Assembly: GCA_963821285.1 (NCBI GenBank)
Contig: CAWGDD010000007.1
Span: forward strand, 148,436 to 212,435
DNA length: 64,000 nt
Source: an uncultured Acidobacteriota bacterium
GTDB taxonomy: Bacteria > Acidobacteriota > Vicinamibacteria > Vicinamibacterales > CAVVIG01
Direction: 5' to 3'
The position numbers and the translations under genes were made by a program. The first letter of the stretch is position 1; every line of letters starts with the position of its first letter. Under the pieces are notes generated by a model. That model saw only the letters and a list, made by a program, of their open reading frames with translations, ran no database searches and was not told where the DNA came from. Below are positions 5,019-25,234 of the stretch, one piece after another.

Positions 5019-5738
5019 CTACCGAACCTCTGGAACTTCCGGAACCCCTGGAACCTCTAGAACCTCTCGAGCCTTCTTGAACACGTCGCCCAGCATGTCG
5101 GCCGTGAGCTTGCCCGTGTTCGTGTTCTGCCGGCTCGGGTGATAGCAGCCGAAGAGCATCTGTCCGTTCGGCAGGCGATGTCCGACGCCGTGACCGAACG
5201 TGGGACGGGGCTTCAGCACGACGCCGTTCCGCTTGAGCAGCTGCAGGTACGCGTCGAACGCAATCTTCCCGAGCGCGACCACGACCGAGACGCGCGGCAG
5301 CGCGGCGAGCTCCGCGCCGAGATGCGGAAGGCAGCGGGCGATTTCTTCCGGCGTCGGCTTGTTGTCGGGCGGCGCGCAGCGAACCGCCGCCGCGATGAAC
5401 GCATCGTGCAACGTGAGCCCATCGTCGGGGTGCTGCGACGTGCGGATGTTGGCGAAGCCCGCATCGCACAAGCCCGCCATCAGGAAATCGCCCGATCCGC
5501 CGACACCGTCGCCGGTGAACACGCGGCCCGTGCGGTTGGCGCCGTGCGCGGCCGGCGCCAGGCCAACGACGAGCAGCCGCGCGCGTGGATCGCCGAACCC
5601 CGGAACCGGCTTCGCCCAGTACGTGTCGTCGCGGAACGCGCGCCGTTTCTCGATCCCGATGCGCCGGCAGTACGCGCGCAGCCGCGGGCACAACTCGCAG
5701 GACACGATCGCCTCGGAGACATCGGTCAACGTCGTCAT
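5019..5738 (-). CDS. Uracil-DNA glycosylase superfamily protein, family 5 (UdgB)/family 4-like, Fe-S type
   Basis: CELCPRL..., GLAPAAHGANRTGRVFTGD, HPSRQN motifs. The C-terminal tail EVLEVPGVPEVPEVR is encoded by the 9-nt repeat. Confidence 0.75.
   Translation of the reverse strand: MTTLTDVSEAIVSCELCPRLRAYCRRIGIEKRRAFRDDTYWAKPVPGFGDPRARLLVVGLAPAAHGANRTGRVFTGDGVGGSGDFLMAGLCDAGFANIRTSQHPDDGLTLHDAFIAAAVRCAPPDNKPTPEEIARCLPHLGAELAALPRVSVVVALGKIAFDAYLQLLKRNGVVLKPRPTFGHGVGHRLPNGQMLFGCYHPSRQNTNTGKLTADMLGDVFKKAREVLEVPGVPEVPEVR
5022..5068. repeat. 9-nt tandem repeat (GGAACCTCT-like, ~5 units) forming the 3' end of the UDG gene
   Basis: ccgaacctc tggaacttc cggaacccc tggaacctc tagaacctc. Confidence 0.8.
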
Positions 5739-5916: not shown

Positions 5917-8593
5917 GTGCGACACATTTCCCCCAAAGACGCGGCCGATCTCGACGCGACCGAAACACGCGAATGGCTCGATTCCGTTGATTATGTCCTG
6001 CAGAGCGGCGGCCCCGCCAAGGTCGCCCGCCTGCTCCGCGAGCTGACCCAGTACGCCCGGCAGCACGGCGTCAAGCTTCCGTTCACCGCCAACACGCCCT
6101 ACGTCAACACGATTCCGGCCGACGAACAGGCGCTCATGCCGGGCAGCCCCGACGTCGAGCGCCGCATCAAGAGCCTCGTCCGCTGGAACGCCGCCGCGAT
6201 GGTCGTGCGCGCGAACAAGGCGTCGGAAGGAATCGGCGGCCACATCTCGACGTATGCCTCGGCCGCGACGCTGTACGAAGTCGGCTTCAACCACTTCTTC
6301 CGCGGACACGCCTCCGGCGACCCGGATGTGATCTTCTTTCAGGGCCACGCGGCGCCGGGCATCTACGCGCGCGCGTACCTCGAAGGGCGGCTCGACGAAA
6401 CACATCTCGTGAACTTCCGCCGCGAGCTCAAAGACGGCGGCGGCCTTTCGTCGTATCCGCATCCCTGGCTGATGCCCGACTTCTGGGACTATCCGAGCGT
6501 CTCGATGGGGCTGAGCCCCATCATGGCGATCTACCAGGCGCGCTTCATCCGCTACCTCGAGGATCGCGGGCTGAAGGCGAAGTCCGAGACCAAGGTGTGG
6601 GCGTTCCTGGGCGACGGCGAGACCGACGAGCCCGAGTCGCTCGGCGCCATCACGCTGCCCGCGCGCGAGAAGCTCGACAACCTCATCTTCGTCATCAACT
6701 GCAACCTCCAGCGCCTCGACGGCCCCGTTCGCGGCAACGGCCAGATCATCCAGGAACTCGAAGCCGCGTTCCGCGGCGCCGGATGGAACGTGATCAAGGT
6801 CCTCTGGGGACGCGAATGGGATGTGTTGCTCGCGAAGGATCGCGACGGCCTCCTCGTCAAGCGCATGGGCGACATCGTCGACGGCCAGTATCAGAAGTAC
6901 GCCGTCGAATCCGGCGCGTATCTACGCGAGCACTTCTGGGGCGTCGATCCGCGGCTGCTCGAGATGGTCAAGCACCTGAGCGACGACCAGCTCAAGAAGA
7001 TGACCCTCGGCGGCCACGATCCGGTGAAGGTGTACAACGCCTTCAAGGCTGCCGTGGAACACAAGGGCGCGCCGACCGTCATCCTCGCCCGGACCATCAA
7101 GGGCTACGGCCTCGGCGAAGCCGGTGAGGGCAAGAACATCACGCACCAGCAGAAGAAGCTGAACGAAGACGAGCTTCGCGCCTTTCGTACACGCTTCGGC
7201 GTGCCCATCTCCGACGCCGACATCGGCCACACCCCGTTCTACCGTCCCGCAGAAGACAGCATCGAAACCCGTTACATGCGCGAGCGCCGCACGGCGCTCG
7301 GCGGGTTCGTGCCCGCGCGCAAGGTCCGCAGCGAGGTCGTGCCGGTTCCGGCGCACGAACAGTTCGAGGAGTTCTTCAAGGGCACCGAAGGCCGCAAGGC
7401 CTCGACCACGATGGTGTTCGTGCGGTTGCTGAGCAAGCTCCTGCGCGACAAGGACATCGGCCGGTTGATCGTGCCGATCGTGCCGGACGAGGCGCGCACC
7501 TTCGGCATGGAGGCGCTGTTTCGAGCCGTCGGCATCTACTCCCACGCCGGGCAGGTGTACGAGCCCGTCGACATGGACACGCTCCTGTACTACAAGGAAG
7601 CCTCGGACGGGCAGATTCTCGAGGAAGGCATCAATGAAGCCGGCGCGATGTCGTCCTTCATTGCCGCGGGCACGGCGTACGCCACGCACGGCGTGAACAC
7701 GATTCCCTTCTTCATCTACTACTCGATGTTCGGCTTTCAGCGGATCGGCGACCTGATCTGGGCCGCCGCCGACTCGCGCACGCGAGGTTTCCTCCTCGGC
7801 GGGACCGCCGGGCGCACCACCCTGGCCGGCGAGGGTCTCCAGCACCAGGACGGCAACAGCCAGCTCTTCGCCCTCGCGTACCCGAATTGCCTGCCGTACG
7901 ACCCGGCGTATGCGTACGAGATGGCGGTCATCATCGAAGACGGCATCCGCCGGATGTACGTCGATCAGGAAAGCGTCTTCTACTACCTGACGGTGATGAA
8001 CGAGCAGTACCGAGATGCCGCCGATGCCGGACGGCGCGCGTGAGGGCATCCTGAAGGGGCTGTACCGCTTCCGCGCCACGTCCACGCCGAAGGCGACGCT
8101 CCGGGCGCAGCTCTTCGGCAGCGGTGCCATCCTGCCCGAAGTGGTCAAGGCGCAGGCCCTCCTCGAATCCGACTACGGCGTCGGCGCCGACGTGTGGAGC
8201 ATCACCAGCTTCGTGCAGCTGTACCGCGACGGCTTCACGGCCGACCGCTGGAATATGCTGCACCCGGGCGAGACGCCGCGCGTGCCGTACGTGACGCAAT
8301 GCGTGAAGGACGCGCCCGGCGTCTTCGTCGCCGCCTCGGACTACGTCAAGGCGCTGCCGCACGCGATCGATCGCTGGCTGCCGCGCCCGCTCGAGACGCT
8401 CGGCACGGACGGCTTCGGCCGCAGCGAGAGCCGCGAGAGCCTGCGAGACTTCTTCGAAGTCGATGCCCGCTACATCGTCGTCGCCACGCTTGGCGCGCTG
8501 GCCCGCGACGGACAGCTCGATGTCGCCGTTGTGCAGAAGGCCATCAAGAGCCTGGGCATCAACCCCGACAAACTGAATCCGGCGGTGTCGTAG
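5917..8593 (+). pseudogene. aceE: Pyruvate dehydrogenase E1 component (homodimeric AceE type), disrupted as assembled by a +1 frameshift at 8011-8014
   Basis: ORF 5917..8043 plus ORF 8015..8593. The junction NEQY|(c)|[18 protein letters not shown] resembles my recollection of AceE. Four bases (cgag) separate tac from atg. Confidence 0.9.
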
Positions 8594-9933
8594 TGGCGGA
8601 TCTCACCCTGCCCGAACTGGGCGAAAACATCACCGCCGGTGATGTGCTCAACGTGCTGGTGAAGGTCGGCGACACGCTGGCCAAGGATCAGCCCGTTCTC
8701 GAACTCGAGACCGACAAGGCGACGATCGAAGTGCCTTCCTCCGTCGCGGGCACGGTCACCGCCATCAAGGTGAAGGCGGGCGACAAGGTCAAGGTCGGAC
8801 AAGCGATCCTGACCCTCGCGGACAACGGCGCCGCCGCGGTCGCGCCGGCGCCCGCCGCACCGCCACCCGCGCCTGCTGCGGTCGTCGCGCCGCCAACGCG
8901 AAGCGAAGGTGCCCCCACACTCGTCCGGTCTCGCGATGCGGAGCGGGGCGAAGGGGCCACCAATGTGATCGATATCGCGCGGGGCCCGCGGCACGTCGTG
9001 GCATCCGTCTCCGACGCGGCGTCCGCGCCTGCCGCGCCCTCGGTCCGCCGCATGGCGCGAGAACTGGGCGTCGACATCAACCAGGTCCCCGGCTCGGGCG
9101 ACGCCGGCCGGATCTCGATCGAGGATGTGAAGGAGCACGCCAAGCGCCTCATCACGGCGGCGGCCTCGTCTCCAGCGGGGAGCGTTGCGCCGCGGCCCGT
9201 GGGCGAGCCGCTGCCGGATTTCAGCCGGTGGGGCGCCATCGAGCGTCAGCCGATGCGCGGCATCCGCAAGAAGACGGCCGAGCACCTCGGCGCGTCGTGG
9301 GCGACCATCCCGCTCGTGACGCAGTACGACCTGGCCGATATCACCGGGTTCGAAGAAATCCGGAAGCGGCACACGAAGCAGGGCGGCGCCGGGGCGGCGC
9401 CGCTGACGGTGACGACGCTCGCGGTCAAGATTGTCGCCGCGGCGCTCAGGCAGTTTCCGCAGTTCAACGTGTCCATCGACATGGCCGCCGAGGAGATCAT
9501 CGTCAAGAAATACGTCCACATCGGCGTGGCGGTCGATACCGATCGCGGTCTGCTCGTGCCCGTTGTCCGTGACGCCGACACGAAAAGCCTGATGCAGATT
9601 TCCGAGGAGGTGGCGGCGCTGGCCGAGAAGGCGCGCAGCCGGAAGCTTTCGCTCGACGAGATGCAGGGCGGCACCTTCAGCCTCTCCAATCTGGGGGGCA
9701 TCGGCGGGACCTCGTTTACACCGCTCGTCAACGCGCCGGAAGTCGCGATTCTTGGGATTTCGCGCGCGCGCATGGAGCCGGTGTTCAAGGACGGACAGTT
9801 CATCCCGCGACTGATGCTTCCGCTGTCGCTGTCGTACGACCATCGCGCCATCGACGGCGCTGACGGTGCGCGATTCCTGCGCTGGGTCGCCGACGTCTTC
9901 GAGCAGCCGTTCCTGCTCTCGCTTCAGGGATGA
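8593..9933 (+). CDS. aceF: Dihydrolipoamide acetyltransferase E2 (one lipoyl domain, E3-binding domain, catalytic domain)
   Basis: A GTG start overlaps the aceE TAG by 1 nt. LELETDKATIEVPS lipoyl motif, PSVRRMARELGVDINQV E3-binding motif, SLSYDHRAIDGADGARFL catalytic motif. Confidence 0.9.
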   Translation: MADLTLPELGENITAGDVLNVLVKVGDTLAKDQPVLELETDKATIEVPSSVAGTVTAIKVKAGDKVKVGQAILTLADNGAAAVAPAPAAPPPAPAAVVAPPTRSEGAPTLVRSRDAERGEGATNVIDIARGPRHVVASVSDAASAPAAPSVRRMARELGVDINQVPGSGDAGRISIEDVKEHAKRLITAAASSPAGSVAPRPVGEPLPDFSRWGAIERQPMRGIRKKTAEHLGASWATIPLVTQYDLADITGFEEIRKRHTKQGGAGAAPLTVTTLAVKIVAAALRQFPQFNVSIDMAAEEIIVKKYVHIGVAVDTDRGLLVPVVRDADTKSLMQISEEVAALAEKARSRKLSLDEMQGGTFSLSNLGGIGGTSFTPLVNAPEVAILGISRARMEPVFKDGQFIPRLMLPLSLSYDHRAIDGADGARFLRWVADVFEQPFLLSLQG

Positions 9934-12131: not shown

Positions 12132-13034
12132 CTACGAACCGGCGGCGGCTTGCCAGGCGTCGGCGGTTTCGTGCGCGTGATACGAGCTGCGCACGAGGGG
12201 GCCTGACTCGACGTGCACGAACCCGAGGTCGAGCGCGATCTGCTTGAGCTCGCGGAACTCGTCGGGGTGGTAGTAGCGGGTCATCGGCGCGTGTTCGCTC
12301 GAGGGGCGCAGGTACTGTCCGATCGTGAGGATCTGGCAGCCGACACCGCGCAGATCGCGGAACGTGGCGACCAGCTCGTCGTGCTCCTCGCCGAGACCGA
12401 CCATGACGCCGGTCTTCGTCGGGATCTCGGGCGCGTACCGTCGCGATCGATCCAGGAGTTCCAGCGTCCGCGTGTAACGTCCGCCCGAACGCGCCATGCG
12501 GTAGAGCCGTGGCACCGTTTCCGTGTTGTGATTCATCACGTCCGGGCGCGCGTCGAGGACGGTCCGGAGCGCGGCCTCGTCCCCCTGAAAATCGGGAATC
12601 AGCACCTCGAGCCGGCACCCGGGATGGAGCGCGCGCGTCTGGCGGATGGTGTCCGCGAAGATCGAGGCCCCGCCGTCCTTCAGATCGTCGCGGTCCACCG
12701 ACGTCACGACGACGTAGCTGAGGTCGAGCGCGTGGATGGCGTGGGCGACGCGGGCGGCCTCATCCGGATCGGCGGGTGCGGGCCGGCCGTGCGAGATGGC
12801 GCAGTAGGCACAGGCGCGCGTGCAGACCTCGCCGAGAATCATGAACGTGGCGGTGCCGTGGTTCCAGCACTCACCGATGTTGGGGCACTGCGCTTCTTCG
12901 CACACGGTATGGAGCTTCAGCTCGCGCATCAGGCCCTTGAGCCGTGTGTAGTTCGGCGACCCGGGCGCGCGCACCTTCAGCCAGGCCGGTTTCGGCGGCC
13001 TGGGCGCCGGCACGAGCGGGATCAGGGAGCCCAT
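12132..13034 (-). CDS. lipA: Lipoyl synthase
   Basis: VCEEAQCPNIGECW and CTRACAYC radical-SAM cluster motifs; 300 aa. Confidence 0.9.
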   Translation of the reverse strand: MGSLIPLVPAPRPPKPAWLKVRAPGSPNYTRLKGLMRELKLHTVCEEAQCPNIGECWNHGTATFMILGEVCTRACAYCAISHGRPAPADPDEAARVAHAIHALDLSYVVVTSVDRDDLKDGGASIFADTIRQTRALHPGCRLEVLIPDFQGDEAALRTVLDARPDVMNHNTETVPRLYRMARSGGRYTRTLELLDRSRRYAPEIPTKTGVMVGLGEEHDELVATFRDLRGVGCQILTIGQYLRPSSEHAPMTRYYHPDEFRELKQIALDLGFVHVESGPLVRSSYHAHETADAWQAAAGS

Positions 13035-13042
13035 GTCGCCAA

Positions 13043-13699
13043 TTATATCGGGCGCAGGCCGGCGATGAGGTAATCGGCAAACCGGGTGGCGATCTGATCG
13101 GAGCTGGCCGGGCCCCCCGGGTTGAACCAGCGGGCAATCCAGTTCAGGGCCCCCAGCATGGCAAAGCCCACGAGTTTGGGGTCTCCGGGCGCAAAGACGC
13201 CCGTGGCGATGCCCTCCTCGAGAATCATGCGCATGCCCCGGTCGAAGCGGTCGCGCCGCACGATGACGGCTTTGAGATGCGCCGGCGTGAGCGCTTCGAG
13301 ATCGAGCAGCAGCGCCGTACCGTGCAGCTCGTCGAGAATCACGTGGACGGTCGACACGATGAGCCGCCGCAGCTTCTCATCCGGCGGCGCCGTGCTGCGC
13401 ACGACCTGGTCCAGCAGTTCCTGCAGCCGATCGTGCGAGTACTCGTGGCAGGCGAAGAGGATCTCTTCCTTGTTGCGGAAGTAGTAGTAGAGGTTGCCCT
13501 TCTTCATCCGCAGGGCGGCGGCGATCTGCTCGACTGTGGCGCCGTGGTAGCCGAGCCTGCGGAACGCCGCGGCGGCGCTCTTGAGGATCTCGACCCGCGT
13601 GGCTGCGCTGACCTCGCTCCGACGCCCGCGCGGCACCCGGCGCCGCGCCCGCCGGCGTTTCACGCCCGCGGCGGCTGAACTGGAATCGCCCGTCTCCAC
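13043..13699 (-). CDS. TetR/AcrR-family transcriptional regulator
   Basis: N-terminal HTH ILKSAAAAFRRLGYHGATVEQIAAALRMKKGNLYYYFRNKEEIL. Confidence 0.8.
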   Translation of the reverse strand: METGDSSSAAAGVKRRRARRRVPRGRRSEVSAATRVEILKSAAAAFRRLGYHGATVEQIAAALRMKKGNLYYYFRNKEEILFACHEYSHDRLQELLDQVVRSTAPPDEKLRRLIVSTVHVILDELHGTALLLDLEALTPAHLKAVIVRRDRFDRGMRMILEEGIATGVFAPGDPKLVGFAMLGALNWIARWFNPGGPASSDQIATRFADYLIAGLRPI

Positions 13700-13765: not shown

Positions 13766-15013
13766 CTACCGATGCGTCACCAGCATCAGCACCGTCAGCA
13801 GCACCATCACCACGACCGTCGTCCAGGCGATGGTGTTGAAGCTGCGTGAGTTCGTGTAGCTGCCCATCAGCTCGCGGTCGTTGGTCAGCAGCAGCATGAA
13901 CACGAGCACGAGCGGCAGCACGATGCCGTTGGCCACCTGCGACAGCACCGATACGTAGACGAGCGGCAGCCCCGGCACGAGCAGCACGGCGGCGCCGAGC
14001 ACGATGATCACCGTGTAGAGCCAGTAGAACACCGGCGCCTCGCGGAACTTCTTGTCGAGGCCCGACTCGAAGCCGAGGCCTTCGCACACCGCGTACGCCG
14101 TCGAGATCGGGAGGATCGACGCCGCGAACAGCGAGGCGTTGAAGAGGCCGGCGGCGAAGAGCAGGTAGGCGTACTCGCCGGCGAGCGGCCGGAGGGCCTG
14201 TGCGGCGTCCGCCGCGCTGCCGATGTCGTGATGGCCGTTGGCGTAGAGCGTGGCCGCGCAGGCGACGATGATGAACCACGCGACGATGTCGGTGAAGATG
14301 CACCCGAGGATCACGTCCCACCGTGACGCGGCGTACTGCCTGGCGGTGATGCCCTTCTCGACGATCGAGGCCTGCAGGTAGAACTGCATCCACGGTGCGA
14401 TCGTGGTCCCCACGAGGCCGATCACCATGTAGAGGTAGCCGTAGTTCCGGATCCCCGCCGCTTCGGGCCGCGTCACGGTGGCGAAGGCCGCCGCCTTCCA
14501 GTCCGGATGCGCGAGCAGTCCGGCGATGATGTATGCGACGTAGAACGCCGACGCGGTCAGGAAGATCTTCTCGATGCTGGCATAAGTGCCGCGGACCACG
14601 AGCAGCCAGACGACGAACGCCGCCAGCGGCACCACGATGTACCGCGACAGCCCGAACAGCTCGAGGCTGCTCGCGATGCCCGCGAACTCGGCGACGACGT
14701 TGCCGAAGTTCGTCACGATGAGCGTCACCATCACGATGAACGTCAGCCGGAACCCGAACTCTTCCCGGATGAGATCGCTCAACCCCTTGCCGGTGACGGC
14801 GCCCAGCCGCGACGCCATCTCCTGCACCACGATGAGCGCGATCGTGATCGGGATCATCGTCCAGAGCAGCGAGTAGCCGAACTGCGCGCCGGCCTGGGAG
14901 TACGTGAAGATGCCGCCCGCGTCGTTGTCGACGTTGGCGGTGATGAACCCGGGCCCGATGACGGCCAGCAGGAGCAGCAGCCGGGTCTTCCAGTGCTTCA
15001 GCGTGGACCGCAT
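13766..15013 (-). CDS. NRAMP/SLC11-family transporter with NRMT-like (Mg2+-type) substitutions in the metal site
   Basis: 415 aa. TM1 GPGFITANVDNDAGGIFTYSQAGAQFGY (DAGG in place of DPGN). TM6 GLVGTTIAPWMQFYLQ (T..A-P-W in place of A..M-P-H). Confidence 0.75.
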   Translation of the reverse strand: MRSTLKHWKTRLLLLLAVIGPGFITANVDNDAGGIFTYSQAGAQFGYSLLWTMIPITIALIVVQEMASRLGAVTGKGLSDLIREEFGFRLTFIVMVTLIVTNFGNVVAEFAGIASSLELFGLSRYIVVPLAAFVVWLLVVRGTYASIEKIFLTASAFYVAYIIAGLLAHPDWKAAAFATVTRPEAAGIRNYGYLYMVIGLVGTTIAPWMQFYLQASIVEKGITARQYAASRWDVILGCIFTDIVAWFIIVACAATLYANGHHDIGSAADAAQALRPLAGEYAYLLFAAGLFNASLFAASILPISTAYAVCEGLGFESGLDKKFREAPVFYWLYTVIIVLGAAVLLVPGLPLVYVSVLSQVANGIVLPLVLVFMLLLTNDRELMGSYTNSRSFNTIAWTTVVVMVLLTVLMLVTHR

Positions 15014-15015
15014 GG

Positions 15016-16254
15016 CTACCGTCTGTGGCGCAGCATCGTGATGACGTCGTCCGCCGTGATGATGCCGGCGAGCCGTTCGTGCTCGTCGAGGACGGCCAGG
15101 GTGACGAGGTTGTACTTGTCGAAGAGCGCCGCAACGTCATCATCCGGCGTGTCGGCCGCGCAGGTAACGGCCGGCTCGACCAGCTGAGAGAGGGGCGTGG
15201 TGGGCGGCGACAAAGCGATCTTCACGAGCGGCACGGCGCCCACGATCTTGTAGGCGACGTTGTAGAGGTAGACCGTGGCGACGGCCTCGCGGCTGCCTTC
15301 GAACTGCCGCAGCGCTTCGATTGCGTCGTCCACGATTCCGTGATCGCCGACGGCGACGAACTCGGTCGTCATCCGGCCGGCGGCGGTGTGCTCGCCGAAC
15401 TCCAGGAGCTGAGTGACCTCCTGGCGTTCCTCCGGCTCCATCTCCTTGAGGATGGCGCCCGACCGATCTTCCGGCAGCTCGCCGAGCAGGTCGGCCGCGG
15501 CGTCGGGGTCCATTTCCTCGACGATGTCGGCCGCGCGGTCGGAGTCCAGCGACTCGACGATCGAGACCTGGACTTTCGGGTCGATCTCTTCGAGCGCCTC
15601 GGCGGCGACCTCCTCGTCGAGGGTCTCGAAGACGGCCTCGCGCTCGGCGTGCGGCAGGTCCTCGACGATGTTGGCGATGTCCGCCGGGTGGAGCTTCGAG
15701 AGGCCTTCGTAGACGATCTTCAGCTTGACGCGGCGCGCCGGGTCCGTTTCGAGCAGATCGACGTACGCCCACGGGATGACTCGCGGCGGAATGCGGTCGA
15801 GCAGCGTGCGCAGGGTGAACGACGGCACGATGCCCTTCGTGAGACGCCGGATGGCGCCGCGGGCGCCGACATCGACGGCGACCACGCTGAGGACGACGTG
15901 GCTGTTCAGGGGTGTGGAGTCGAGCTCGACGTCGTTGACGCGGACGACCTTTCGCCCGTGGACGTCGATGATCTGCTGATCGAGCAGGTCGCGCTTGAGG
16001 AGCAGGACGCCGTCAGAGGCTGCGTACTTCTCCCAGGCCGAGCCATCGTCGTCTGTGCGGACGATGGCCCCGCACGACTTGAGCACTGTGGACGGGAGCA
16101 CGCGCTCGCCGTCTGATGTCTTGACGATTAGATAGGCGATCCGGGTGGGGTGGTCCTGCGGGGCGATCGCGATCTCGCGCACGCGTCCGAGAACGGCGCC
16201 GGTGGCACCGCGCACGGGAGCGCCGAGGAGTTCGGAGAGCGCGACGAGCGACAT
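15016..16254 (-). CDS. Soluble PRC-barrel + MgtE N-terminal domain + CBS-pair protein (no membrane pore domain)
   Basis: 412 aa. MgtE_N-like acidic helices LHPADIANIVEDLPHAEREAVFETLDEEVAAEALEEIDP...DIVEEMDPDAAADLL, then a CBS pair (...LAVLDEHERLAGIITADDVITMLR). It ends 2 nt before the transporter gene. Confidence 0.7.
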   Translation of the reverse strand: MSLVALSELLGAPVRGATGAVLGRVREIAIAPQDHPTRIAYLIVKTSDGERVLPSTVLKSCGAIVRTDDDGSAWEKYAASDGVLLLKRDLLDQQIIDVHGRKVVRVNDVELDSTPLNSHVVLSVVAVDVGARGAIRRLTKGIVPSFTLRTLLDRIPPRVIPWAYVDLLETDPARRVKLKIVYEGLSKLHPADIANIVEDLPHAEREAVFETLDEEVAAEALEEIDPKVQVSIVESLDSDRAADIVEEMDPDAAADLLGELPEDRSGAILKEMEPEERQEVTQLLEFGEHTAAGRMTTEFVAVGDHGIVDDAIEALRQFEGSREAVATVYLYNVAYKIVGAVPLVKIALSPPTTPLSQLVEPAVTCAADTPDDDVAALFDKYNLVTLAVLDEHERLAGIITADDVITMLRHRR

Positions 16255-16299
16255 TGATGGAAATCCCGCATGAGTGGACTCCCTCAGAATAACAGCATT

Positions 16300-17532
16300 T
16301 CAATGCCGGTGAGCCCTCGAATCGTGCGGCTGCGGACGATAGCGCACGAACACGTGGAACGAGTGCGGCGAGGTGCCGTAGTAGTCGATCATGTTGTCCG
16401 GCACGTGGTAGAACGTCGCGTCCCCGCCGAGGCCGAGACGCCCCCATGGTTTGTTTACGACGTCGTGGACATAGCCGAACGTCGCGGCCGCGACGTGTGA
16501 AATGCGATGAAAGGACACGAAGCCGGGCGGATCCGGAAAGCCCAGGTCGAGCAGATCCTTGGCCGAGGCTTCTGCGCGTCCGTAGAAGTGCCCGCGCCCG
16601 GCGATCGGCGTGTCCCATTCGAAGAGATATCCGTCGAGGGGACCGTGGATCTCGCGGTTCTCGCCCCAGGCGAGCGTGGCAGCGACGGGATGCGACCGCA
16701 CCGTTCCGTTGAATTCGATTGAGGCCGTGATGCGCGGGATGTCGTACGGCTCGAACCATGCGGGCTCGTGCAGAATGCCGCCCGACACCTGGGCCATCCA
16801 CGGACCGCGCTGCCATTTCCCTTGAACCGACCAGGAGTCGAGCCACGGCCGGCCGATGTCCAGCCGGTTCTCGTCCGGCTCCTGTCCACGGAACCACGAC
16901 GCCAGGAACGTCAGGGCCCCCGCCTCGACGCCCCCCGTCACCACGCCCGGTGTGATGTGCGTGGAATCGAGTTGGTGGTGGGTGAGCGGGGCCTGCGGGT
17001 TGTTGCGGGCCGACTCGCGGTGCATGAACGGCGTCGGCCCGAGCGCGGCGGGCCCGACCAGGTCGGCTGACATGATGAGCGTGGCGTGTGGCCCGCGCAG
17101 CCGGTAGGTGGCGCCGAGCTCCATGAACAGATCGTGCGGATGCTGGCGATCGATGAGCGGGCCCCTTTGGTACGACTCGCCAGTCTGGAACAGCTGCGGG
17201 GAGCCGATGCCGCGCATGGTGAACGGCTCGAGCGAGATCATGCCCTCCACCTGAAACGCTCCGCGGCCGAGTCGCCGCGCGCCGTGCAGCATGAACCAGT
17301 TCTGCGACTCCCAGGCCGACTGATCTTTGAACTCGCGCTGCTGGTAGTTGTAGCCGAAGAACACGTTGGCGTCGGGCGACCACGACCACGTGGGCAATTC
17401 CGCCGGCGTGGCGCCGCGCGCGGTGTCGTGCACGTGATCGGCGGGGGAGGTTGCGGGCTCTTGCGCCGCCGCCGGGGATGCGAGGGCCCGGAGGAAGAAG
17501 GGCATGAGGACGACGAGCGGCGGCAGGCGCAT
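16300..17532 (-). CDS. Secreted His-rich protein, putative outer-membrane beta-barrel
   Basis: Start set at MRLPPLVVLMPFFLRALASPAAAQEP (signal peptide) because the upstream part of the track ORF overlaps the -24/-12 promoter. Alternating beta-strand-like pattern, DRQHPHDLFMELG. No family recognised. Confidence 0.45.
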   Translation of the reverse strand: MRLPPLVVLMPFFLRALASPAAAQEPATSPADHVHDTARGATPAELPTWSWSPDANVFFGYNYQQREFKDQSAWESQNWFMLHGARRLGRGAFQVEGMISLEPFTMRGIGSPQLFQTGESYQRGPLIDRQHPHDLFMELGATYRLRGPHATLIMSADLVGPAALGPTPFMHRESARNNPQAPLTHHQLDSTHITPGVVTGGVEAGALTFLASWFRGQEPDENRLDIGRPWLDSWSVQGKWQRGPWMAQVSGGILHEPAWFEPYDIPRITASIEFNGTVRSHPVAATLAWGENREIHGPLDGYLFEWDTPIAGRGHFYGRAEASAKDLLDLGFPDPPGFVSFHRISHVAAATFGYVHDVVNKPWGRLGLGGDATFYHVPDNMIDYYGTSPHSFHVFVRYRPQPHDSRAHRH

Positions 17533-17560
17533 CAGGGTTCGGACGGACCGGTTCTTGCCA

Positions 17561-17575
17561 CGCAAGGGAAGTGCC
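17561..17575 (-). promoter_or_regulatory. Sigma-54 (-24/-12) promoter candidate: cGGCAC-ttccc-TTGCG
   Basis: Minus strand reads gcggcGGCACttcccTTGCGtggc, with exact GG-N10-GC spacing. The -12 element is 30 nt upstream of ATG 17532. Confidence 0.55.
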
Positions 17576-17697
17576 GCCGCTCGCCGGCAAAAGCTGCGAG
17601 GTTCGACGGAAGGCTATCCTGCCAGCTTACGCGTTCAGTAAGGTATTGCGGAACGGGTAAGCGGGGGGATCGTATCGGGGGCTGGGGACAGGAGAAC

Positions 17698-18153
17698 ATG
17701 ACGCTGAGCCGACTGTCGATCGTCGCGCTGCTTGCCGTGACCGTGGCGTGTGCAAGCGAGCCCCCGAGTCAGCCGCCGACGCCGGCGGCTCCGACGCCGC
17801 CGGTCGTTCCGGCGGGTCCGCCGAAGCCGCTCGAGGGCGCCACGATCACGATTACTTCGTCCGGCTTGCGGCTCGACAGCGCCTCAGCGGCTGCGTATTC
17901 CATCAACGATCTGCACGTCTATGCCGGTGCACGTCTCACCTTCGTCAACAGCGACAATGATCCGCACGACATGCTGTCGGGTCCGCTGGGATTGCACAAC
18001 GACTGCCCCGAAATCAACATCGCCGGCTACCTGGTGCCCGGCCAGTCACGCGCGACCGATCCGCTCACGCATCTCATGCCCTGCGAGTTTCACGATCACA
18101 CGCACGAAGGCAATCCGGCGTTCGGCGGCCGGGTGACGGCCGAACCGCGATAG
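17698..18153 (+). CDS. Lipoprotein with cupredoxin-like domain (paralog of 19942..20370)
   Basis: Lipobox LLAVTVAC. LTFVNSDNDPHDMLSGPLGLHNDCPEINIAGYLVPGQSRATDPLTHLMPCEFHDHTH aligns residue-for-residue with the paralog. Confidence 0.55.
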   Translation: MTLSRLSIVALLAVTVACASEPPSQPPTPAAPTPPVVPAGPPKPLEGATITITSSGLRLDSASAAAYSINDLHVYAGARLTFVNSDNDPHDMLSGPLGLHNDCPEINIAGYLVPGQSRATDPLTHLMPCEFHDHTHEGNPAFGGRVTAEPR

Positions 18154-18212
18154 ACGATCCGGCCGGGCGGCGGTCTTGACCGTCCGGACAGGTCGGGATT
18201 ATGCTCGTTCTT

Positions 18213-18232
18213 GAAAGTGAGACTCATTCTCA
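18213..18232 (+). promoter_or_regulatory. Fur-box-like operator upstream of the PepSY gene
   Basis: gaaagTGAGActcatTCTCA. 14/19 matches to GATAATGATAATCATTATC and 12/15 to the 7-1-7 core. AT-rich island 56 nt upstream of ATG 18288. Confidence 0.45.
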
Positions 18233-18287
18233 TCTATGTCTCGCTTCTCGATTCCTCTACCTAAAACTGACGTCGCCGGGCCGATCG

Positions 18288-19445
18288 ATGAAACCGTTTC
18301 GTACCGCTCTGTTCTGGCTTCACCTGGCCGCCGGCGTCGCTGCGGGCCTCGTCATCCTCGTGATGTCGGCGACCGGCGCTGTGCTGGCGTTCAAGCCGCA
18401 GATTCTCGACCGCGTGGACCGCGCCGTGCGGTTCGTCGATCCCGCCGGCACGCCGCGGCTCGAGCCGTCGCGGATCCTCGCGGCGGCTCAGGCTGCCCGG
18501 CCCGACGGCCAGCCGGCGACGCTGGTGCTCGACCGCGATCCGTCGGCGTCGGCCGCCGTCGGCTTCGGCCGCGACGGCACGCTGTACGTGAACCCCTACA
18601 CGGGCGCCCAGCTTGGCGCGGGCTCGGCCGTCGCCCAGCAGTTCTTCCGCGCCACTGAAGACCTGCACCGCTGGCTGAGTTTCAGCGGCGACAACCGCGA
18701 TACGGGGCGCTCGCTGACCGGTGCATCCAACCTGGCGTTTCTGGGCCTGGCCATCACGGGCCTGTTCCTCTGGTGGCCGCACAAGTGGCTCCCGCAGCAC
18801 CTGACGGCGATCCTGCTCTTCCGGCGCACAGCCACAGCGCGCGCCCGCGACTTCAACTGGCACAACGTCATCGGCTTCTGGTGCGCGCCGGTCCTCATCG
18901 TGCTGACGGCGACGGGCGTCGTGATGTCGTACCCGTGGGCGAACCGGCTGCTGTATCAGATGGCCGGCAGCCCGCTGCCCGCCGCACGGGGTCCGCAGGG
19001 TCTGCGAGGTCCACAGGATTCACAGAGGCCGCGCGTTGATGTCGATGCGCTCTGGGCCCGCGCCGAACAGCAGCTGCCGACCTGGCAGACCGTGACCATG
19101 CGGCTGCCCGAACGGCCGCGCGCGCCCGTGTCGTTTACAATGAACGACGCCCGGCACTGGAACACGTTCGCGCGATCGCAGCTGACCCTGGACGCCGCAA
19201 CCGGCGACATCGTCCGCTGGGAGCCGTACGCCGAGAACAGCCGCGGCCAGAAATGGCGCGGCTGGGTCCGGTTCGGGCACACGGGTGAACTGGGAGGCAT
19301 CGTCGGCCAGACGCTCGCGGGCATCGCGTGCGTGGGGGGCGTGGTGCTCGTCTGGACGGGCCTGGCCCTGGCATTTCGGCGGCTCGTGGGCTGGCAGCTC
19401 TGGCGCCGAATGAACACGGAAGCGGCTCGACGCGTTCGAGCCTAG
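18288..19445 (+). CDS. PepSY-associated TM-helix protein (PiuB/FoxB-like putative ferric reductase)
   Basis: MKPFRTALFWLHLAAGVAAGLVILVMSATGAVLAF..., HRWL, FGHTGELGG, four TM segments. Confidence 0.7.
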   Translation: MKPFRTALFWLHLAAGVAAGLVILVMSATGAVLAFKPQILDRVDRAVRFVDPAGTPRLEPSRILAAAQAARPDGQPATLVLDRDPSASAAVGFGRDGTLYVNPYTGAQLGAGSAVAQQFFRATEDLHRWLSFSGDNRDTGRSLTGASNLAFLGLAITGLFLWWPHKWLPQHLTAILLFRRTATARARDFNWHNVIGFWCAPVLIVLTATGVVMSYPWANRLLYQMAGSPLPAARGPQGLRGPQDSQRPRVDVDALWARAEQQLPTWQTVTMRLPERPRAPVSFTMNDARHWNTFARSQLTLDAATGDIVRWEPYAENSRGQKWRGWVRFGHTGELGGIVGQTLAGIACVGGVVLVWTGLALAFRRLVGWQLWRRMNTEAARRVRA

Positions 19446-19461: not shown

Positions 19462-19941
19462 ATGAAGGGCAACGACGCGATCATCGCAAAGTTGAACGAG
19501 GCGCTCCGCGAGGAGCTGACCGCGATCAATCAGTATTTCGTCCACGCGGAGATGTGCCACAACTGGGGCTATCACCGGCTGGGTAACTACATCAAGAAAC
19601 AGTCGATTGGCGAGATGAAGCACGCTGAGGAGATCCTCGAGCGCATCCTGTTCCTGGACGGGATCCCGTCGATGCTGCCGCTGCCGCTGACGATTGGCGC
19701 CGACGTCAAGGCCCAGATCGAAAACGATCTGAAGCTCGAGCTGAACGCGACGGTGATGTACAACGCGTCGGTCAAGGCGGCGCGCGACGCGGGCGACAAC
19801 GGGTCCGCCGACCTGTTCGAGCGGCTGCTCAAGGACGAGGAGGAACACGTCGACTTCCTCGAGGCGCAGATGCACCAGATCGGACAGCTCGGCTACGAGC
19901 GCTATCTCGGGCAGCAGCTCGATGGCGGCGAGGCGAAGTAG
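19462..19941 (+). CDS. bfr: Bacterioferritin
   Basis: MKGNDAIIAKLNEALREELTAINQYFVHAEMCHNWGY...EMKHAEEILERILFLDG; 159 aa. Confidence 0.9.
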   Translation: MKGNDAIIAKLNEALREELTAINQYFVHAEMCHNWGYHRLGNYIKKQSIGEMKHAEEILERILFLDGIPSMLPLPLTIGADVKAQIENDLKLELNATVMYNASVKAARDAGDNGSADLFERLLKDEEEHVDFLEAQMHQIGQLGYERYLGQQLDGGEAK

Positions 19942-20370
19942 CTACCGAACGGTAATGCTCCCCTGAAGCCCCGCCACATCGGCCATGATGTGGTCGTGGT
20001 AGCCGCAGATCCGCGCGGTGGTGAGGTTGCCGGTCTGCCGCGACTGGCCGGGGTTGAGGAACCCCGCTTGCGAGATTGCCGGACACTCGGTGTGCTCCGG
20101 GTGCGGGTTGGACTCCATGTCGTGCTGCCGGTTGTCGTTGTTGATGAACGTCACCTGGCTGCCGAGCGGTACGATGATGTCCTTCGGCGTGGCGACGTTG
20201 TTCACGATCGTGATCGTGGTCGTGTTCACGGCGCCCGCCGGGGTCGTCGGCGGAGTCACCGGCGACGGCCCGGCCGGGTTGCTGTTGGTGTTGCTGCTCC
20301 CGCCGCACGCGGCCAGCAGCAGCGCCAGCCCGCACGACGCGAAGAACCCGCCCGCCATCCGTGATCGCAT
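19942..20370 (-). CDS. Lipoprotein with cupredoxin-like domain (possible type-1 Cu ligand set H/C/H/M)
   Basis: Lipobox LLLAAC. VTFINNDNRQHDMESNPHPEHTECPAISQAGFLNPGQSRQTGNLTTARICGYHDHIM. Confidence 0.55.
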   Translation of the reverse strand: MRSRMAGGFFASCGLALLLAACGGSSNTNSNPAGPSPVTPPTTPAGAVNTTTITIVNNVATPKDIIVPLGSQVTFINNDNRQHDMESNPHPEHTECPAISQAGFLNPGQSRQTGNLTTARICGYHDHIMADVAGLQGSITVR

Positions 20371-20449: not shown

Positions 20450-21304
20450 TCAGTAGAACTTCCTCGTGAGGTTGAATCCCAGATACCAGTCTGTGCCTTC
20501 CGTGCCGTTCACTCTCGTGGTGCGCGTGCCGCCCCGGGCGATCTGCCCGAACGTGGATGCGAACGAATCGGTGAAGTTGAGCTGGAAGATGTGGCCACCC
20601 GCCCGCTTCTCGATGGCGAAGCCGCCGTGGTTGACGCCCGGCGCGTAGCCGGCGCGGGGCGCGTACTCCCCGACCAGATAGACGGTGTCGAGCACGCGGA
20701 CGCGGGCGCCGAAACCGGTCACGAACGTGTCGTTCTCCGGTGTCGACGAATCGTACAGGTTGGCGTGGTGAATCCAGATCGGCTGGACGTACAGCGCGGC
20801 ACGTTCGGCGATCCGCCTCGACACGATCACGCCGAGCACCGGCTGCGACTGGCTGTCGACGCCGGACCGGCCGACGTCGCTCCAGTCCACCGCGAGCAGT
20901 GCCGACGCCTCGATCGGCGACGTCTTGCCCTGGCGCAGGAACCCGTACTGGCCGAACAGCTCGATGGTCTTGTCGCTGGCGCGATGCACGCCGACCTCAG
21001 TGTTCGGCATGATCCCGTAGCGGTACTCGAGCCCGATGCGTGCGCCGAAGTCCATGCCGAAGGCGTCGGCGGCAAGGCTGTTCGGACAGAGATCGCAGCT
21101 GAGCGGGCGGGTGAATCGGTGCGTCAGGCGGAACGCGCTCCCGTTGACGGGGAGCCGCAGCGACGTCGGCAGGCTGACCAGCGTGAAGTCGGGTTCCGCC
21201 AGCTTCAGCACCCGGTCGTCCCCCTCGTCCGTGTTCTGGGCGTAGCCGGCCGTCGCGGCGAGCAGCGAGAAGAGCAGTGTGCAGAGAATGCGGGTGTTTG
21301 TCAT
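20450..21304 (-). CDS. DUF5777-like outer-membrane beta-barrel protein
   Basis: Signal peptide MTNTRILCTLLFSLLAATAGYAQ, LTHRF..., IGLEYRYGI, C-terminal ...LGFNLTRKFY. Confidence 0.55.
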   Translation of the reverse strand: MTNTRILCTLLFSLLAATAGYAQNTDEGDDRVLKLAEPDFTLVSLPTSLRLPVNGSAFRLTHRFTRPLSCDLCPNSLAADAFGMDFGARIGLEYRYGIMPNTEVGVHRASDKTIELFGQYGFLRQGKTSPIEASALLAVDWSDVGRSGVDSQSQPVLGVIVSRRIAERAALYVQPIWIHHANLYDSSTPENDTFVTGFGARVRVLDTVYLVGEYAPRAGYAPGVNHGGFAIEKRAGGHIFQLNFTDSFASTFGQIARGGTRTTRVNGTEGTDWYLGFNLTRKFY

Positions 21305-21379: not shown

Positions 21380-21395
21380 CGCAAGCCGGATGCCG
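21380..21395 (-). promoter_or_regulatory. Sigma-54 (-24/-12) promoter candidate: cGGCAT-ccggc-TTGCG
   Basis: Minus strand reads acggcCGGCATccggcTTGCGtag, with correct spacing. About 78 nt upstream of ATG 21304 and directly downstream of the NtrC-type activator gene. Confidence 0.5.
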
Positions 21396-21493
21396 GCCGT
21401 TGCCGGGACCCTTCGTCGGGAACGCCCGGCGGGACGGCGCCCGGTTTACAGAAGCCGTAACGGGTTTCCGTCCCCGTAATATGTCTTCCGGGC

Positions 21494-22861
21494 TCAGTCG
21501 AGACGGTACTTGGCCAGATAGTACGACAGCGCGCGCTGGCTGATCCCCATCAGTTCCGCGGCATCCTTCTTCACGCCGCCCGCGCTCTCGATGGCCCGCC
21601 GGATGGTCTCGCGCTCGACCCACTCGATGTTCTGCCGGAGTTTCAGCGAGGGGAGAGTGGTTGCCTGCGGCGCCGCCGCGCCCAGCACCGAGACGGCGCG
21701 GGCGCCGATGACGTTTCCCGTCGAAAGCACGACGGCGCGTTCGATCGTGTTCTCGAGCTCGCGGACGTTGCCCGGCCAGTCGTACTGCTGCAGGCCGGCC
21801 ATCACGCTGTCTTCGGGGCGATCGATGCGGCGTCCGACGCGCTGCGCGTGTTTCCGGATGAAGTGCTCGACGAGCGACGGGATGTCGTCGCGCCGTTCCC
21901 GCAGCGGCGGGATTTCGATCGGGATCACGTTGAGGCGGTAGAAGAGGTCTTCCTGGAACTTGCCGTCGGCCACCATCTGTCGGAGATCGCGGTTGGTGGC
22001 GGCGATGACGCGCAGGTCGACCTTCTCGGTCCGCTCCGACCCGAGCGGCTCGAACTCGCGCTCCTGCAGGACGCGCAGGAGCTTGCTCTGCAGCGGCGGG
22101 CTCATGGTGCCGATTTCGTCGAGGAAGATCGTGCCGCCGTCGGCGAGCGCGAACTTGCCTTTCTTGGTGGTCGTCGCCCCGGTGAACGCGCCGCGCACGT
22201 GGCCGAAGAGCTCCGACTCGAGCAGCGTTTCGGGAATGGCGGCACAGTTGACCTTGATGAGCGGCATGTCGCGCTGGGCGCTGCGGTCGTGGATGGCGCG
22301 GGCCACCAGTTCCTTGCCGGTGCCCGTTTCGCCGGTGATGAGGACGGTGCTCTTCGTCTCGGCCACCAGCTCCGCGCGCCGGATCACTTCCTCCATGGCC
22401 CGGCTGCGCCCGATGATGCCGTAGTGGTCGAACTGCTCGTCGCGCTCGCTGAGCAGATAGCGGTGCTCCGTCCGAAGGCGCTGATGATCGAGCGCGCGCC
22501 GTACGACGACGATCAGCTCGTCGATCTCGAACGGTTTGATCAGGTAGTCGAGCGTCCCCAGCTTCATCGCTTCGATGGCGCTCTCGACGGTCGCGTGCGC
22601 CGTCATCATCAGGATCTGCGCGCGTTCGCCCTCCGGCGCCGACCCGATGTACTCGCGAATCAGGTCAAGCCCGCTCAGCTCGGGCATCATGTTGTCCACC
22701 ACGAGCAGGTCGAACGGGCGCTCGGCCAGCAGCCGCTGCGCCTGACGTGGGCTGGTCGTGTCCACGACGGCGTGGCCGGCCTCGCGCAGGGCGCGTCCGA
22801 GCGACTTCAGGATCTTCTCTTCGTCATCAACGATCAGGATCGAGCCGCGGCCGTGGGTCAT
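21494..22861 (-). CDS. Sigma-54-dependent response regulator (NtrC family: REC + AAA+ + HTH)
   Basis: ILIVDDE...DLLVVDNMMP receiver, GETGTGKE Walker A, GAFTGA loop (HVRGAFTGA), C-terminal HTH AAELMGISQRALSYYLAKY. Confidence 0.9.
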   Translation of the reverse strand: MTHGRGSILIVDDEEKILKSLGRALREAGHAVVDTTSPRQAQRLLAERPFDLLVVDNMMPELSGLDLIREYIGSAPEGERAQILMMTAHATVESAIEAMKLGTLDYLIKPFEIDELIVVVRRALDHQRLRTEHRYLLSERDEQFDHYGIIGRSRAMEEVIRRAELVAETKSTVLITGETGTGKELVARAIHDRSAQRDMPLIKVNCAAIPETLLESELFGHVRGAFTGATTTKKGKFALADGGTIFLDEIGTMSPPLQSKLLRVLQEREFEPLGSERTEKVDLRVIAATNRDLRQMVADGKFQEDLFYRLNVIPIEIPPLRERRDDIPSLVEHFIRKHAQRVGRRIDRPEDSVMAGLQQYDWPGNVRELENTIERAVVLSTGNVIGARAVSVLGAAAPQATTLPSLKLRQNIEWVERETIRRAIESAGGVKKDAAELMGISQRALSYYLAKYRLD

Positions 22862-22865
22862 GGGG

Positions 22866-24774: not shown

Positions 24775-24787
24775 GCCCAACGACGGA

Positions 24788-25234
24788 TTATAGCCCCCGG
24801 TTTTCGAGCACGTAGCGGATGACCAGCGTGCCGGGCACAAGCGCGGTGAAGGTGCGGTTAGGGTAGGGCGATACGTAGGTCATCGACACCAGCACGCGGC
24901 CGTCGCGCAGCCATCCGCGCGCGACGCGCGCCCGGCGGGCGCCGTACAACCTCGCGAGCGCCGAGCGATCGTACGGCCCCGATGTGCCGAACGCGTCCAG
25001 CGGGTCCAGGGCGTCCACGGTGCCGACCTGCGCGCCACGCGTGCTCATGTCCGCCCGCACCACGTCTTCGAGCGGCGACAGGGTCGTGCACACATGGTAG
25101 GTCCCCAAGAGGGGGCGCCGTGGCGTGAAGAGCGCCGTCAGCGCCGTGTCGCAGTCGTACGCCGGCCCCGGTCCAGGCGGCCTGGCGGGAGCGGCCAGCT
25201 CAGCTAGTAGAATGAAGAGGATGGCGTATATCAT
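24788..25234 (-). CDS. Hypothetical secreted protein, first gene of the kinase/regulator operon
   Basis: From Met 26 of ORF 24788..25309: [22 protein letters not shown]..., no family recognised. It ends 14 nt before the kinase start. Confidence 0.4.
   Translation of the reverse strand: MIYAILFILLAELAAPARPPGPGPAYDCDTALTALFTPRRPLLGTYHVCTTLSPLEDVVRADMSTRGAQVGTVDALDPLDAFGTSGPYDRSALARLYGARRARVARGWLRDGRVLVSMTYVSPYPNRTFTALVPGTLVIRYVLENRGL

Follow-up and report, generated by a model that had tools for sequence, protein, structure and literature searches.

We analysed a 64,000-nucleotide (nt) stretch of DNA, here called the window, from the genome of an uncultured soil member of the Vicinamibacterales (Acidobacteriota). 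It encodes an NRMT-type transporter of the SLC11/NRAMP family, a soluble MgtE-like protein (hereafter the partner) from the gene just upstream and, upstream of both, a porin-like outer-membrane barrel. By sequence the transporter is a member of the NRMT clade, and the core unit formed by partner and transporter is a member of the two-gene kind described in 2014. Our best reading, which we hold to be probable, is that the locus consists of this published pair of an NrmT and an MgtE-domain protein, served by a promoter of its own, together with a lineage-specific, sigma-54-controlled barrel neighbour that the pair does not require. The genes that carry this reading are the following.

13766..15013, minus strand: NRMT-type SLC11 transporter, 415 amino acids (aa), assigned by Pfam Nramp, its match to EleNRMT and its site motifs
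15016..16254, minus strand: soluble MgtE-like partner, 412 aa, assigned by Pfam and NCBIfam domains and by alignment to Thermus thermophilus MgtE (TtMgtE)
about 15028..15375, minus strand: CBS pair of the partner, assigned by Pfam CBS and the TtMgtE alignment
16300..17532, minus strand: 16-strand porin-like barrel, 410 aa from the ATG at 17532, assigned by an AlphaFold2 (AF2) model and Foldseek

The transporter carries the NRMT metal site

The transporter matches the Pfam Nramp profile (PF01566) with E = 1.3e-98, covering profile positions 2-357 of 357. Its closest solved relative is EleNRMT (7qia; 379.6 bits, E = 1.8e-112), whereas the MntH/DraNramp chains reach at most 115.3 bits, and it is this comparison of scores that places it in the NRMT clade. 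Against the NCBIfam MntH model it scored 149.5, under the cut-off of 430. In the first transmembrane helix (TM1) the metal site reads D31-A-G-G34 (nt 14912..14923), with Gly replacing the NRAMP Asn, and it aligns to D55-A-G-G58 of EleNRMT. The TM6 site reads T203-T-I-A206-P-W208 (nt 14390..14407), with Thr for Ala and Ala for Met, which matches T224..A227 of EleNRMT, and the helix-10 Gln is kept as Q359. The initial annotation of this DNA had called the protein an SLC11/NRAMP transporter whose DAGG and TTIAPW motifs follow the NRMT pattern, and both motifs are indeed identical to those of EleNRMT. The NRMT site residues are D55, G58, T224 and Q379, T224 being required for Mg2+, and EleNRMT carries Mg2+ as well as Mn2+ (Ramanadane et al. 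2022, eLife).

Scanning a single genome for each species gave at least 596 NRMT loci, of which the best 80 were kept (L006-L085, with the NRMT gene at about 8001..9240 in each). Nearly all of these come from Acidobacteriota, namely Vicinamibacteria and Terriglobia, and Acidobacterium capsulatum lies outside the set; two of the loci, L018 and L056, share one metagenome-assembled genome. The motifs were compared in 81 sequences, comprising 79 relatives from the acidobacterial set, the window transporter and EleNRMT. TTIAPW and the helix-10 Gln are kept in 81 of 81, and the TM1 motif is DAGG in 57 and another in 24 (DANG 10, DPNG 8, DSGG 5, DTGG 1). In a tree of the NRMT sequences only, rooted on EleNRMT, loci with and without a partner are interspersed, and one clade is mostly partner-less. 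There is no clear signal of co-evolution with the partner in this tree, and the mostly partner-less clade suggests NRMT paralogues.

The partner keeps the MgtE clamp and lacks the pore

The partner gene ends in a TAG stop codon, which is followed by 2 nt and then by the ATG of the transporter. Pfam places a PRC domain at residues 4-54 (16093..16245), an MgtE_N domain at residues 188-288 (15391..15693, E = 2.1e-30) and a CBS domain at residues 360-408. The region of about residues 80-180 is highly conserved and may hold a second PRC barrel, for which Pfam gave a weak stretch only. The alignment to the cytosolic domain of T. thermophilus MgtE (2yvy, E = 2e-25) stops just short of the plug helix, and no transmembrane-like hydrophobic stretch was found along the 412 aa. 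The partner has at least 8000 homologues, the top 120 of which are 80-95% identical and 412 aa long, and the PRC-containing N-terminal extension is present in every partner of our survey of Acidobacteriota loci.

We assigned the metal sites after Maruyama et al. 2018, with the numbering offset inferred from I28 and I84. The equivalents of the MgtE ligands are E219 for E59 (Mg7), D251 and D403 for D91 and D247 (Mg4) and D255 for D95 (Mg6), and these four partner residues are invariant in 35 homologues. The ligands of Mg5 are replaced (D226 by N382, D250 by T406), and the partner ends at residue 412, before the plug helix, so that the plug sites Mg2/Mg3 (E258/D259) and the pore site Mg1 are absent. 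Because the ligands of the N-domain/CBS clamp are kept while plug and pore are gone, the partner has the clamp without its coupling to the MgtE pore. The domains, the 2-nt gap, the missing transmembrane stretch and the kept ligands of three Mg2+ sites bear out the earlier description of a 412-aa PRC, MgtE_N and CBS protein that corresponds to the pore-less cytoplasmic half of MgtE.

The pairing has a published precedent

The combination of such a module with an NRMT-type transporter had been taken to be undescribed, but it is already in Shin et al. 2014 (PLoS Genet 10:e1004429, PMC4072509), together with the same feedback idea. The passages of that paper on which this and later statements draw define the NrmT group, report an adjacent gene for the MgtE cytoplasmic domain for most NrmT genes and propose cytoplasmic feedback regulation or metal chaperoning as the role of the MgtE fragment. 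The trans-regulation put forward in the initial annotation is the one proposed there. Among the titles and abstracts found in our literature term searches, no later one addresses the role of the MgtE fragment.

The neighbourhood survey that the annotation had suggested was carried out on the 80 NRMT loci, and in 50 of them a gene with MgtE_N and CBS domains adjoins the NRMT gene, upstream on the same strand and with its PRC half and MgtE_N/CBS half contiguous. The partner is missing in the other 30, and because 23 of those have at least 3 kb of upstream DNA, its absence there is real. Partner and NRMT genes are separated by 2-33 nt in Vicinamibacteria; in Terriglobia the spacing is typically 80-400 nt. 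Three features of the window go beyond the passages of the 2014 paper: the PRC extension, the pattern of kept and lost Mg2+ sites, and the Vicinamibacteria-specific upstream gene for a His-lined porin under sigma-54 and two-component control.

The pair probably has a promoter of its own

Between the barrel and the partner genes we found a conserved candidate promoter element.

16286..16294, minus strand: extended -10-like element TGTTATTCT, which immediately follows the barrel stop codon and lies 31 nt before the partner ATG

The element is kept as TGnTAT(T/G)CT in the window and in L001, L006, L058, L166, L167 (TGATACTCT), L168 and L169, where L166-L169 are loci of close relatives that were found through the partner protein. 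Three of these loci (L058, L167 and L168) have no upstream barrel gene, and no sigma-54 motif was found before the partner gene in the barrel-less loci inspected (L167, L168 and L169). In L169 (6494..6952) a deletion removed the greater part of both the barrel gene and the divergent cupredoxin-like gene, sparing the last 60 barrel codons and the 45-nt spacer. The spared stretch carries the intact extended -10; a fragment of the cupredoxin-like gene remains, and a TonB-dependent receptor gene adjoins. From its sequence and conservation, the extended -10 is probably the own promoter of the partner-NRMT operon. A terminator between the barrel and partner genes was considered and rejected, because the one weak hairpin, which lies over the barrel stop codon, has a stem that is not conserved in L001.

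A credible sigma-54 promoter precedes the barrel gene

The barrel protein has a signal-peptide-like N-terminus and contains 23 His (5.6%), seven of which are invariant among 54 homologues. Motifs with invariant His are QHPHD (130-134), MHRES (170-174) and HHxxDxTH (185-192). No match was found in Pfam or NCBIfam even at E <= 10, and the at least 5959 homologues are all labelled 'hypothetical'. The AF2 model built on the 54 homologues has 16 strands, with a predicted local distance difference test score (pLDDT) of 81 and a predicted template modelling score (pTM) of 0.81. Omp32, BpsOmp38 and OmpF are the top Foldseek matches in the PDB (probability 1.0, E about 1e-12, TM 0.5-0.6), and the sequence identity to solved porins is 8-14%. 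On this modelled fold the protein is an outer-membrane porin-like protein of an uncharacterised sequence family, in line with the signal-peptide, His-rich outer-membrane barrel that the initial annotation had proposed. The His motifs, like the seven invariant His as a whole, sit in the two long segments between strands 3/4 and 5/6 of the model, which would be loops L2 and L3 on the classical porin topology. The C-terminal tail has a conserved HxH instead of the usual terminal aromatic residue.

The regulatory elements around this gene and around a second barrel gene further upstream, with the regulator and kinase genes that follow, are listed below.

17562..17576, minus strand: sigma-54 -24/-12 promoter of the barrel gene, CGGCACTTCCCTTGC, of the form CGGCAC-N5-TTGC (consensus match and conservation)
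17626..17642 and 17645..17661, strand not assigned: two TTAC-N7-GTAA inverted repeats, the first perfect and the second degenerate, 50-85 nt upstream of the -24 element
21381..21395, minus strand: second sigma-54-like promoter, CGGCATCCGGCTTGC, preceding the DUF5777 barrel gene at 20450..21304
21445..21461, minus strand: TTAC-N7-GTAA-like repeat upstream of the second sigma-54 promoter (sequence scan)
21494..22861, minus strand: NtrC-type response regulator (Pfam Response_reg, Sigma54_activat with E = 4.7e-74, and HTH_8)
22858..24840, minus strand: sensor kinase (dCache_3 match below the cut-off in the window)

The barrel promoter CGGCACTTCCCTTGC differs from TGGCAC-N5-TTGC at a single position and ends 30 nt upstream of the ATG at 17532. 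Across the whole window sigma-54-like sites are not in excess (3 observed, 3.69 expected), and a window-wide enrichment was rejected; the barrel site stands above chance because of its position and its conservation in orthologous loci. The element occurs in the same place in at least 11 other loci (L001, L002, L086, L087, L090, L102-L104, L121, L123 and L166), 25-50 nt before the barrel start in every case. It reads CGGCATTTCCCTTGC in L001 and CGGCAGACACCTTGC in L002, is identical to that of the window in L166, and occurs as variants in L086, L087, L090, L102-L104, L121 and L123. The near-perfect -24/-12 site that had been noted 30 nt from the barrel ATG is supported by both position and conservation, and from these the sigma-54 promoter is best assigned to the barrel gene. 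A perfect inverted repeat, CTTGC-GTG-GCAAG (17553..17567, minus strand), overlaps its -12 element; in L002 both arms are kept around a longer spacer (CTTGC-GTAGAG-GCAAG). This repeat might serve as a repressor site or form a 5' hairpin.

The TTAC-N7-GTAA repeats recur in L001, L002 (two copies), L090, L123 and L166 and, judging from sequence and position, are probable activator binding sites. The second promoter CGGCATCCGGCTTGC is identical in L001 and L166 and has variants in L167 and L169, and the two sigma-54 promoters of the window share the form CGGCA(C/T)-N5-CTTGCGT. The kinase orthologue in L167 contains dCache_3, HisKA and HATPase_c domains. The regulator/kinase pair, which lies 4 kb from the barrel promoter in the window, is also present in L166, L167, L168 and L169, and L001 shows the regulator only. 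Taken together, the promoters, the repeats upstream of them and the nearby activator gene make up a coherent local sigma-54 regulon, in which the NtrC-type pair likely controls both promoters.

Barrel and pair are adjacent in some Vicinamibacteria only

An alternative to our reading is that the three genes form one sigma-54 operon that constitutes an envelope-spanning route for Mg2+, made up of a porin, the NRMT transporter and an MgtE-like sensor that gates it in trans. The genes are co-directional on the minus strand with gaps of 45 nt (barrel to partner) and 2 nt (partner to NRMT), the sigma-54 promoter is credible, and the order barrel-partner-NRMT is shared by the window, L001, L006, L166 and 14 metagenome loci although their upstream neighbours differ. 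These 14 come from a scan of metagenomes with the barrel alignment, in which the partner follows the barrel and NRMT comes next where the contig allows (L086-L092, L094-L099 and L116). The independent promoter element before the partner is however conserved, also where the barrel is absent, and several loci with all three genes lack a sigma-54 motif before the barrel. As to substrate, invariant His ligands favour transition metals over Mg2+ on grounds of coordination chemistry, and the nearest tested pair, that of A. capsulatum, carried mainly Mn2+ according to the passages describing it. We consider this one-operon route improbable. Of the single sigma-54 operon proposed in the initial annotation, the credible promoter and the co-directional genes stand, but the pair has its own conserved extended -10, which is present without the barrel as well.

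The distribution of the barrel gene bears on the same question. It is present in only 1 of the 80 NRMT loci from species genomes (L006), and among the four loci of close relatives found through the partner it is present in L166 and absent or reduced to a 60-aa remnant in the other three, the remnant being in L169. It is absent in L007, L008, L015, L045, L058, L167, L168 and every Terriglobia locus examined; in L008 the partner gene comes directly after that of the sigma-54 regulator. Conversely, L002 and L005 contain a barrel gene but no pair, and barrel homologues at 52% identity or less are never found with the pair. A neighbour-joining tree of the partner proteins places the barrel-bearing loci in two groups with barrel-less loci between them, which fits either an ancestral arrangement that was lost several times or gain on two occasions. 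The barrel is thus a lineage-specific neighbour whose relevance to the pair is unproven and which adjoins it only in some Vicinamibacteria. Two apparent frameshifts, in the 3' end of the NRMT gene of L001 (11660..11765) and in the barrel gene of L166 (6650..6669), lie on long metagenomic contigs and are probably assembly errors, not pseudogenes.

A variable metal-handling block separates regulator and partner

In close relatives the conserved backbone comprises the kinase, regulator, partner, NRMT, TetR, lipA, PadR and pyruvate dehydrogenase genes. The block between regulator and partner is variable and may contain cupredoxin-like lipoproteins, the DUF5777 barrel, bacterioferritin, a PepSY_TM protein, a TonB receptor and the barrel gene. 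In relatives CopC/CopD (L005) or a TonB receptor and a 2OG-Fe(II) oxygenase (L001) lie in the block, and in L002 the barrel stands beside CzcCBA. The block behaves as a variable metal-handling island. Its remaining members in the window, and the genes that follow the transporter, are listed here.

17698..18153, plus strand: divergent 151-aa lipoprotein-like, cupredoxin-like protein (His/Cys motifs HDMxSxP...H..CP...C.FHDH)
18201..19445, plus strand: PepSY_TM protein of the variable block
19462..19941, plus strand: bacterioferritin of the variable block
19942..20370, minus strand: paralogue of the protein at 17698..18153 (weak Cupredoxin_1 match, in this paralogue only)
20450..21304, minus strand: DUF5777 membrane barrel of the variable block
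13043..13699, minus strand: TetR (TetR_C_24) gene, following the transporter
12132..13034, minus strand: lipoyl synthase (lipA), following TetR

The divergent 151-aa cupredoxin-like lipoprotein lies directly upstream of the barrel in the window, L001, L002, L086 and L166, and proteins of this kind adjoin barrel homologues in L001, L002, L005, L086, L102-L110, L112, L114, L118, L148 and L166. The two window paralogues of about 145 aa share the pattern N.D...HDM.S.P...H..CP...PGQS...C.(F/Y)HDH, and one has a lipoprotein-like N-terminus. Many other barrel loci have upstream a divergent, membrane-anchored, Cys-rich protein of about 128 aa (CC...PGQxCPMHH...CKMR...PESPPPR), hereafter the CPMHH protein, for which no Pfam family match and no homologue in the window was found. 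Its genes, all on the minus strand of their loci, are among others at 5043..5432 in L006, 4437..4823 in L094, 6235..6621 in L058 and 3293..3784 in L045. In L001 a distinct 137-aa protein with the blue-copper motif C-x2-H-x4-M follows the second sigma-54 promoter.

These neighbours raise a further alternative, namely that the barrel is functionally unrelated to the pair and acts together with the small cupredoxin-like or Cys-rich proteins of the periplasm in a response to copper or zinc stress under sigma-54/two-component control. The family-wide constant neighbour of the barrel is indeed either the cupredoxin-like protein of about 150 aa or the CPMHH protein of about 128 aa. In addition, the L002 barrel stands beside CzcCBA, a kinase and a sigma-54 regulator, the L005 barrel stands beside CopC/CopD, and both sigma-54 promoters of the window precede genes of the variable block. 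Set against this, the gene of the barrel's own subfamily is almost always immediately upstream of the partner, and the CPMHH gene is divergent to the partner gene in the barrel-less loci L045 and L058. The presence of the CPMHH protein beside the partner where no barrel exists hints that all of these genes may belong to a single metal module. We regard a barrel unrelated to the pair as a tentative possibility that deserves to be kept in view.

TetR was also considered as a dedicated regulator of the pair and rejected: it follows NRMT in L001, L167 and L168 and is separated from it by other genes in L166 and L169. Because TetR accompanies lipA even in L005, which has no NRMT pair, it probably belongs to the chromosomal backbone.

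The substrate may be Mn2+ or another transition metal

No M-box riboswitch matched in the window at the Rfam gathering threshold, and at E <= 10 the interval 16100..17800 gave only chance matches to eukaryotic and archaeal small-RNA families. An M-box or any other riboswitch upstream of the barrel or the partner gene was rejected, since none was found. In the 2014 study an M-box lies upstream of many, not all, NrmT pairs and served as a marker of Mg2+ specificity (PMC4072509). The tested acidobacterial pair, ACP_2976/ACP_2977 of A. capsulatum, is without one; its NrmT fully rescued a Mn2+ import defect and rescued a Mg2+ defect only at millimolar Mg2+ (PMC4072509). The Mg2+ selectivity that had been read from the window is not assured in the light of these data and of the transport of both metals by EleNRMT.

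The pair, and possibly the barrel too, may instead serve Mn2+ or another transition metal, to which the MgtE-like module would then respond. The A. capsulatum result and the lack of an M-box in either locus speak for this, as do the Mn2+ transport by EleNRMT, the invariant His clusters of the barrel and the neighbouring bacterioferritin, PepSY_TM and cupredoxin-like proteins, with CopCD, a TonB receptor and CzcCBA in relatives. Conversely, the transporter site agrees residue for residue with that of EleNRMT, including T203, the equivalent of the T224 needed for Mg2+, and the MgtE ligands kept in the partner are carboxylates typical of Mg2+ sites. M-box absence, the A. capsulatum data, the His clusters and the transition-metal neighbours tip the balance somewhat to Mn2+ or some other transition metal as the substrate in vivo, and none of them is decisive. 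We give this alternative not quite an even chance.

Proposed working of the locus

In our preferred reading, that of a published pair with its own promoter beside a lineage-specific barrel, the NRMT carrier would, by homology, let hydrated Mg2+ and/or Mn2+ pass along the electrochemical gradient, uncoupled from H+. The partner, translated just before it, would be a soluble MgtE N-domain/CBS clamp of the dimer type with an added PRC region, in which the Mg4, Mg6 and Mg7 ligands would close the N-domain onto the CBS domain. It would most likely sense the cytoplasmic level of divalent cations and throttle NRMT in trans. The pair would be transcribed from its sigma-70-type extended -10 promoter and the barrel gene from the sigma-54 promoter with its upstream activator sites, probably under the NtrC-type system 4 kb away. 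The variable metal-handling block that includes the barrel sits as an insertion between the regulator and the conserved backbone of partner, NRMT, TetR and lipA. Transcripts that start at the sigma-54 promoter could read through into the pair, and the barrel may admit the same metal, without the pair needing the barrel.

Several observations weigh against this reading. Seen from the barrel side, subfamily members at least 52% identical have the pair downstream in 18 of 20 informative loci (the exceptions being L002 and L005), an association that fits a real three-gene module and on account of which a functional link between barrel and pair is possible. The envelope-spanning three-gene unit of the initial annotation fares differently from its two ends: the barrel is found at 1 of 80 NRMT loci and the pair downstream of the barrel in 18 of 20 subfamily loci. 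Sigma-54 read-through may be the main physiological input to the pair in this genome. As for the partner, co-expression of the MgtE fragment made no change in the one published test, that of the A. capsulatum pair (PMC4072509). Its AF2 model, with a pLDDT of 65, is poor at residues 79-181, the alignment being shallow with all sequences at least 80% identical. In our analysis the regulatory role of the partner is unproven, and the data cannot separate positional orthology of barrel and pair from their functional coupling.

An extended version of the reading is that a subset of Vicinamibacteria recruited the His-lined porin as the outer entry for NRMT, an outer gate that would be under sigma-54/two-component control, with the PRC-extended MgtE module throttling the transporter from the inside in trans. 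We think this unlikely; if true, the three-part module would provide the first instance in which an MgtE-type Mg2+/Mn2+ clamp regulates an unrelated, LeuT-fold carrier. The locus as such brings no new principle. It sharpens the question of the MgtE fragment posed in 2014 through its clamp-only ligands, PRC extension, strong conservation and apparent own promoter. The unannotated family of His-lined barrels (at least 5959 members) and the tidy sigma-54 regulon are possible entry points to metal handling in soil Acidobacteriota.

Comparison with known systems

EleNRMT of Eggerthella lenta (PDB 7QIA) is 46% identical to the window transporter over 399 aa and shares its site, with D, G for Asn, T for Ala, A for Met and the helix-10 Q. 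It comes from another phylum than the window host, and its transport has been measured, whereas the window transporter is known from sequence alone.

The partner resembles the cytosolic domain of T. thermophilus MgtE (2YVY/2YVX) in its MgtE_N superhelix, its CBS pair and the Mg4, Mg6 and Mg7 ligands common to both. It differs in being without the plug helix, the transmembrane pore and the Mg5 ligands and in having an extra N-terminal part of about 175 aa that includes the PRC barrel.

The closest arrangements are the operons of NrmT and MgtE fragment in Shin et al. 2014 (Ca_c0685 of C. acetobutylicum and ACP_2976/2977), and the window NRMT gene likewise lies directly downstream of a pore-less MgtE-domain gene. 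ACP_2976/2977, compared here through the description in the paper, shares with the window the acidobacterial host and the lack of an M-box. In contrast to these operons as the passages of the paper present them, the window has a 412-aa partner with an N-terminal PRC region, an extension that does not occur in those passages, and, immediately before the pair, a gene for a porin-like barrel together with a sigma-54 promoter.

For the barrel, the outer-membrane Mn2+ channel MnoP works with MntH in Bradyrhizobium japonicum (Hohle et al. 2011, as cited in passages of PMC6011978). MnoP/MntH is a precedent for a metal-specific porin that feeds an inner-membrane importer of the NRAMP family; the likeness drawn here is one of function, which for the window barrel is a predicted one. 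To our knowledge, mnoP and mntH do not lie next to each other, and Mur, not sigma-54, is their regulator.

For the regulation, ZraSR is an NtrC-type, sigma-54-dependent, metal-responsive two-component system. The window resembles it in gene make-up, with a kinase and a Response_reg-Sigma54_activat-HTH_8 regulator beside GG-N10-GC promoters that have inverted repeats upstream.

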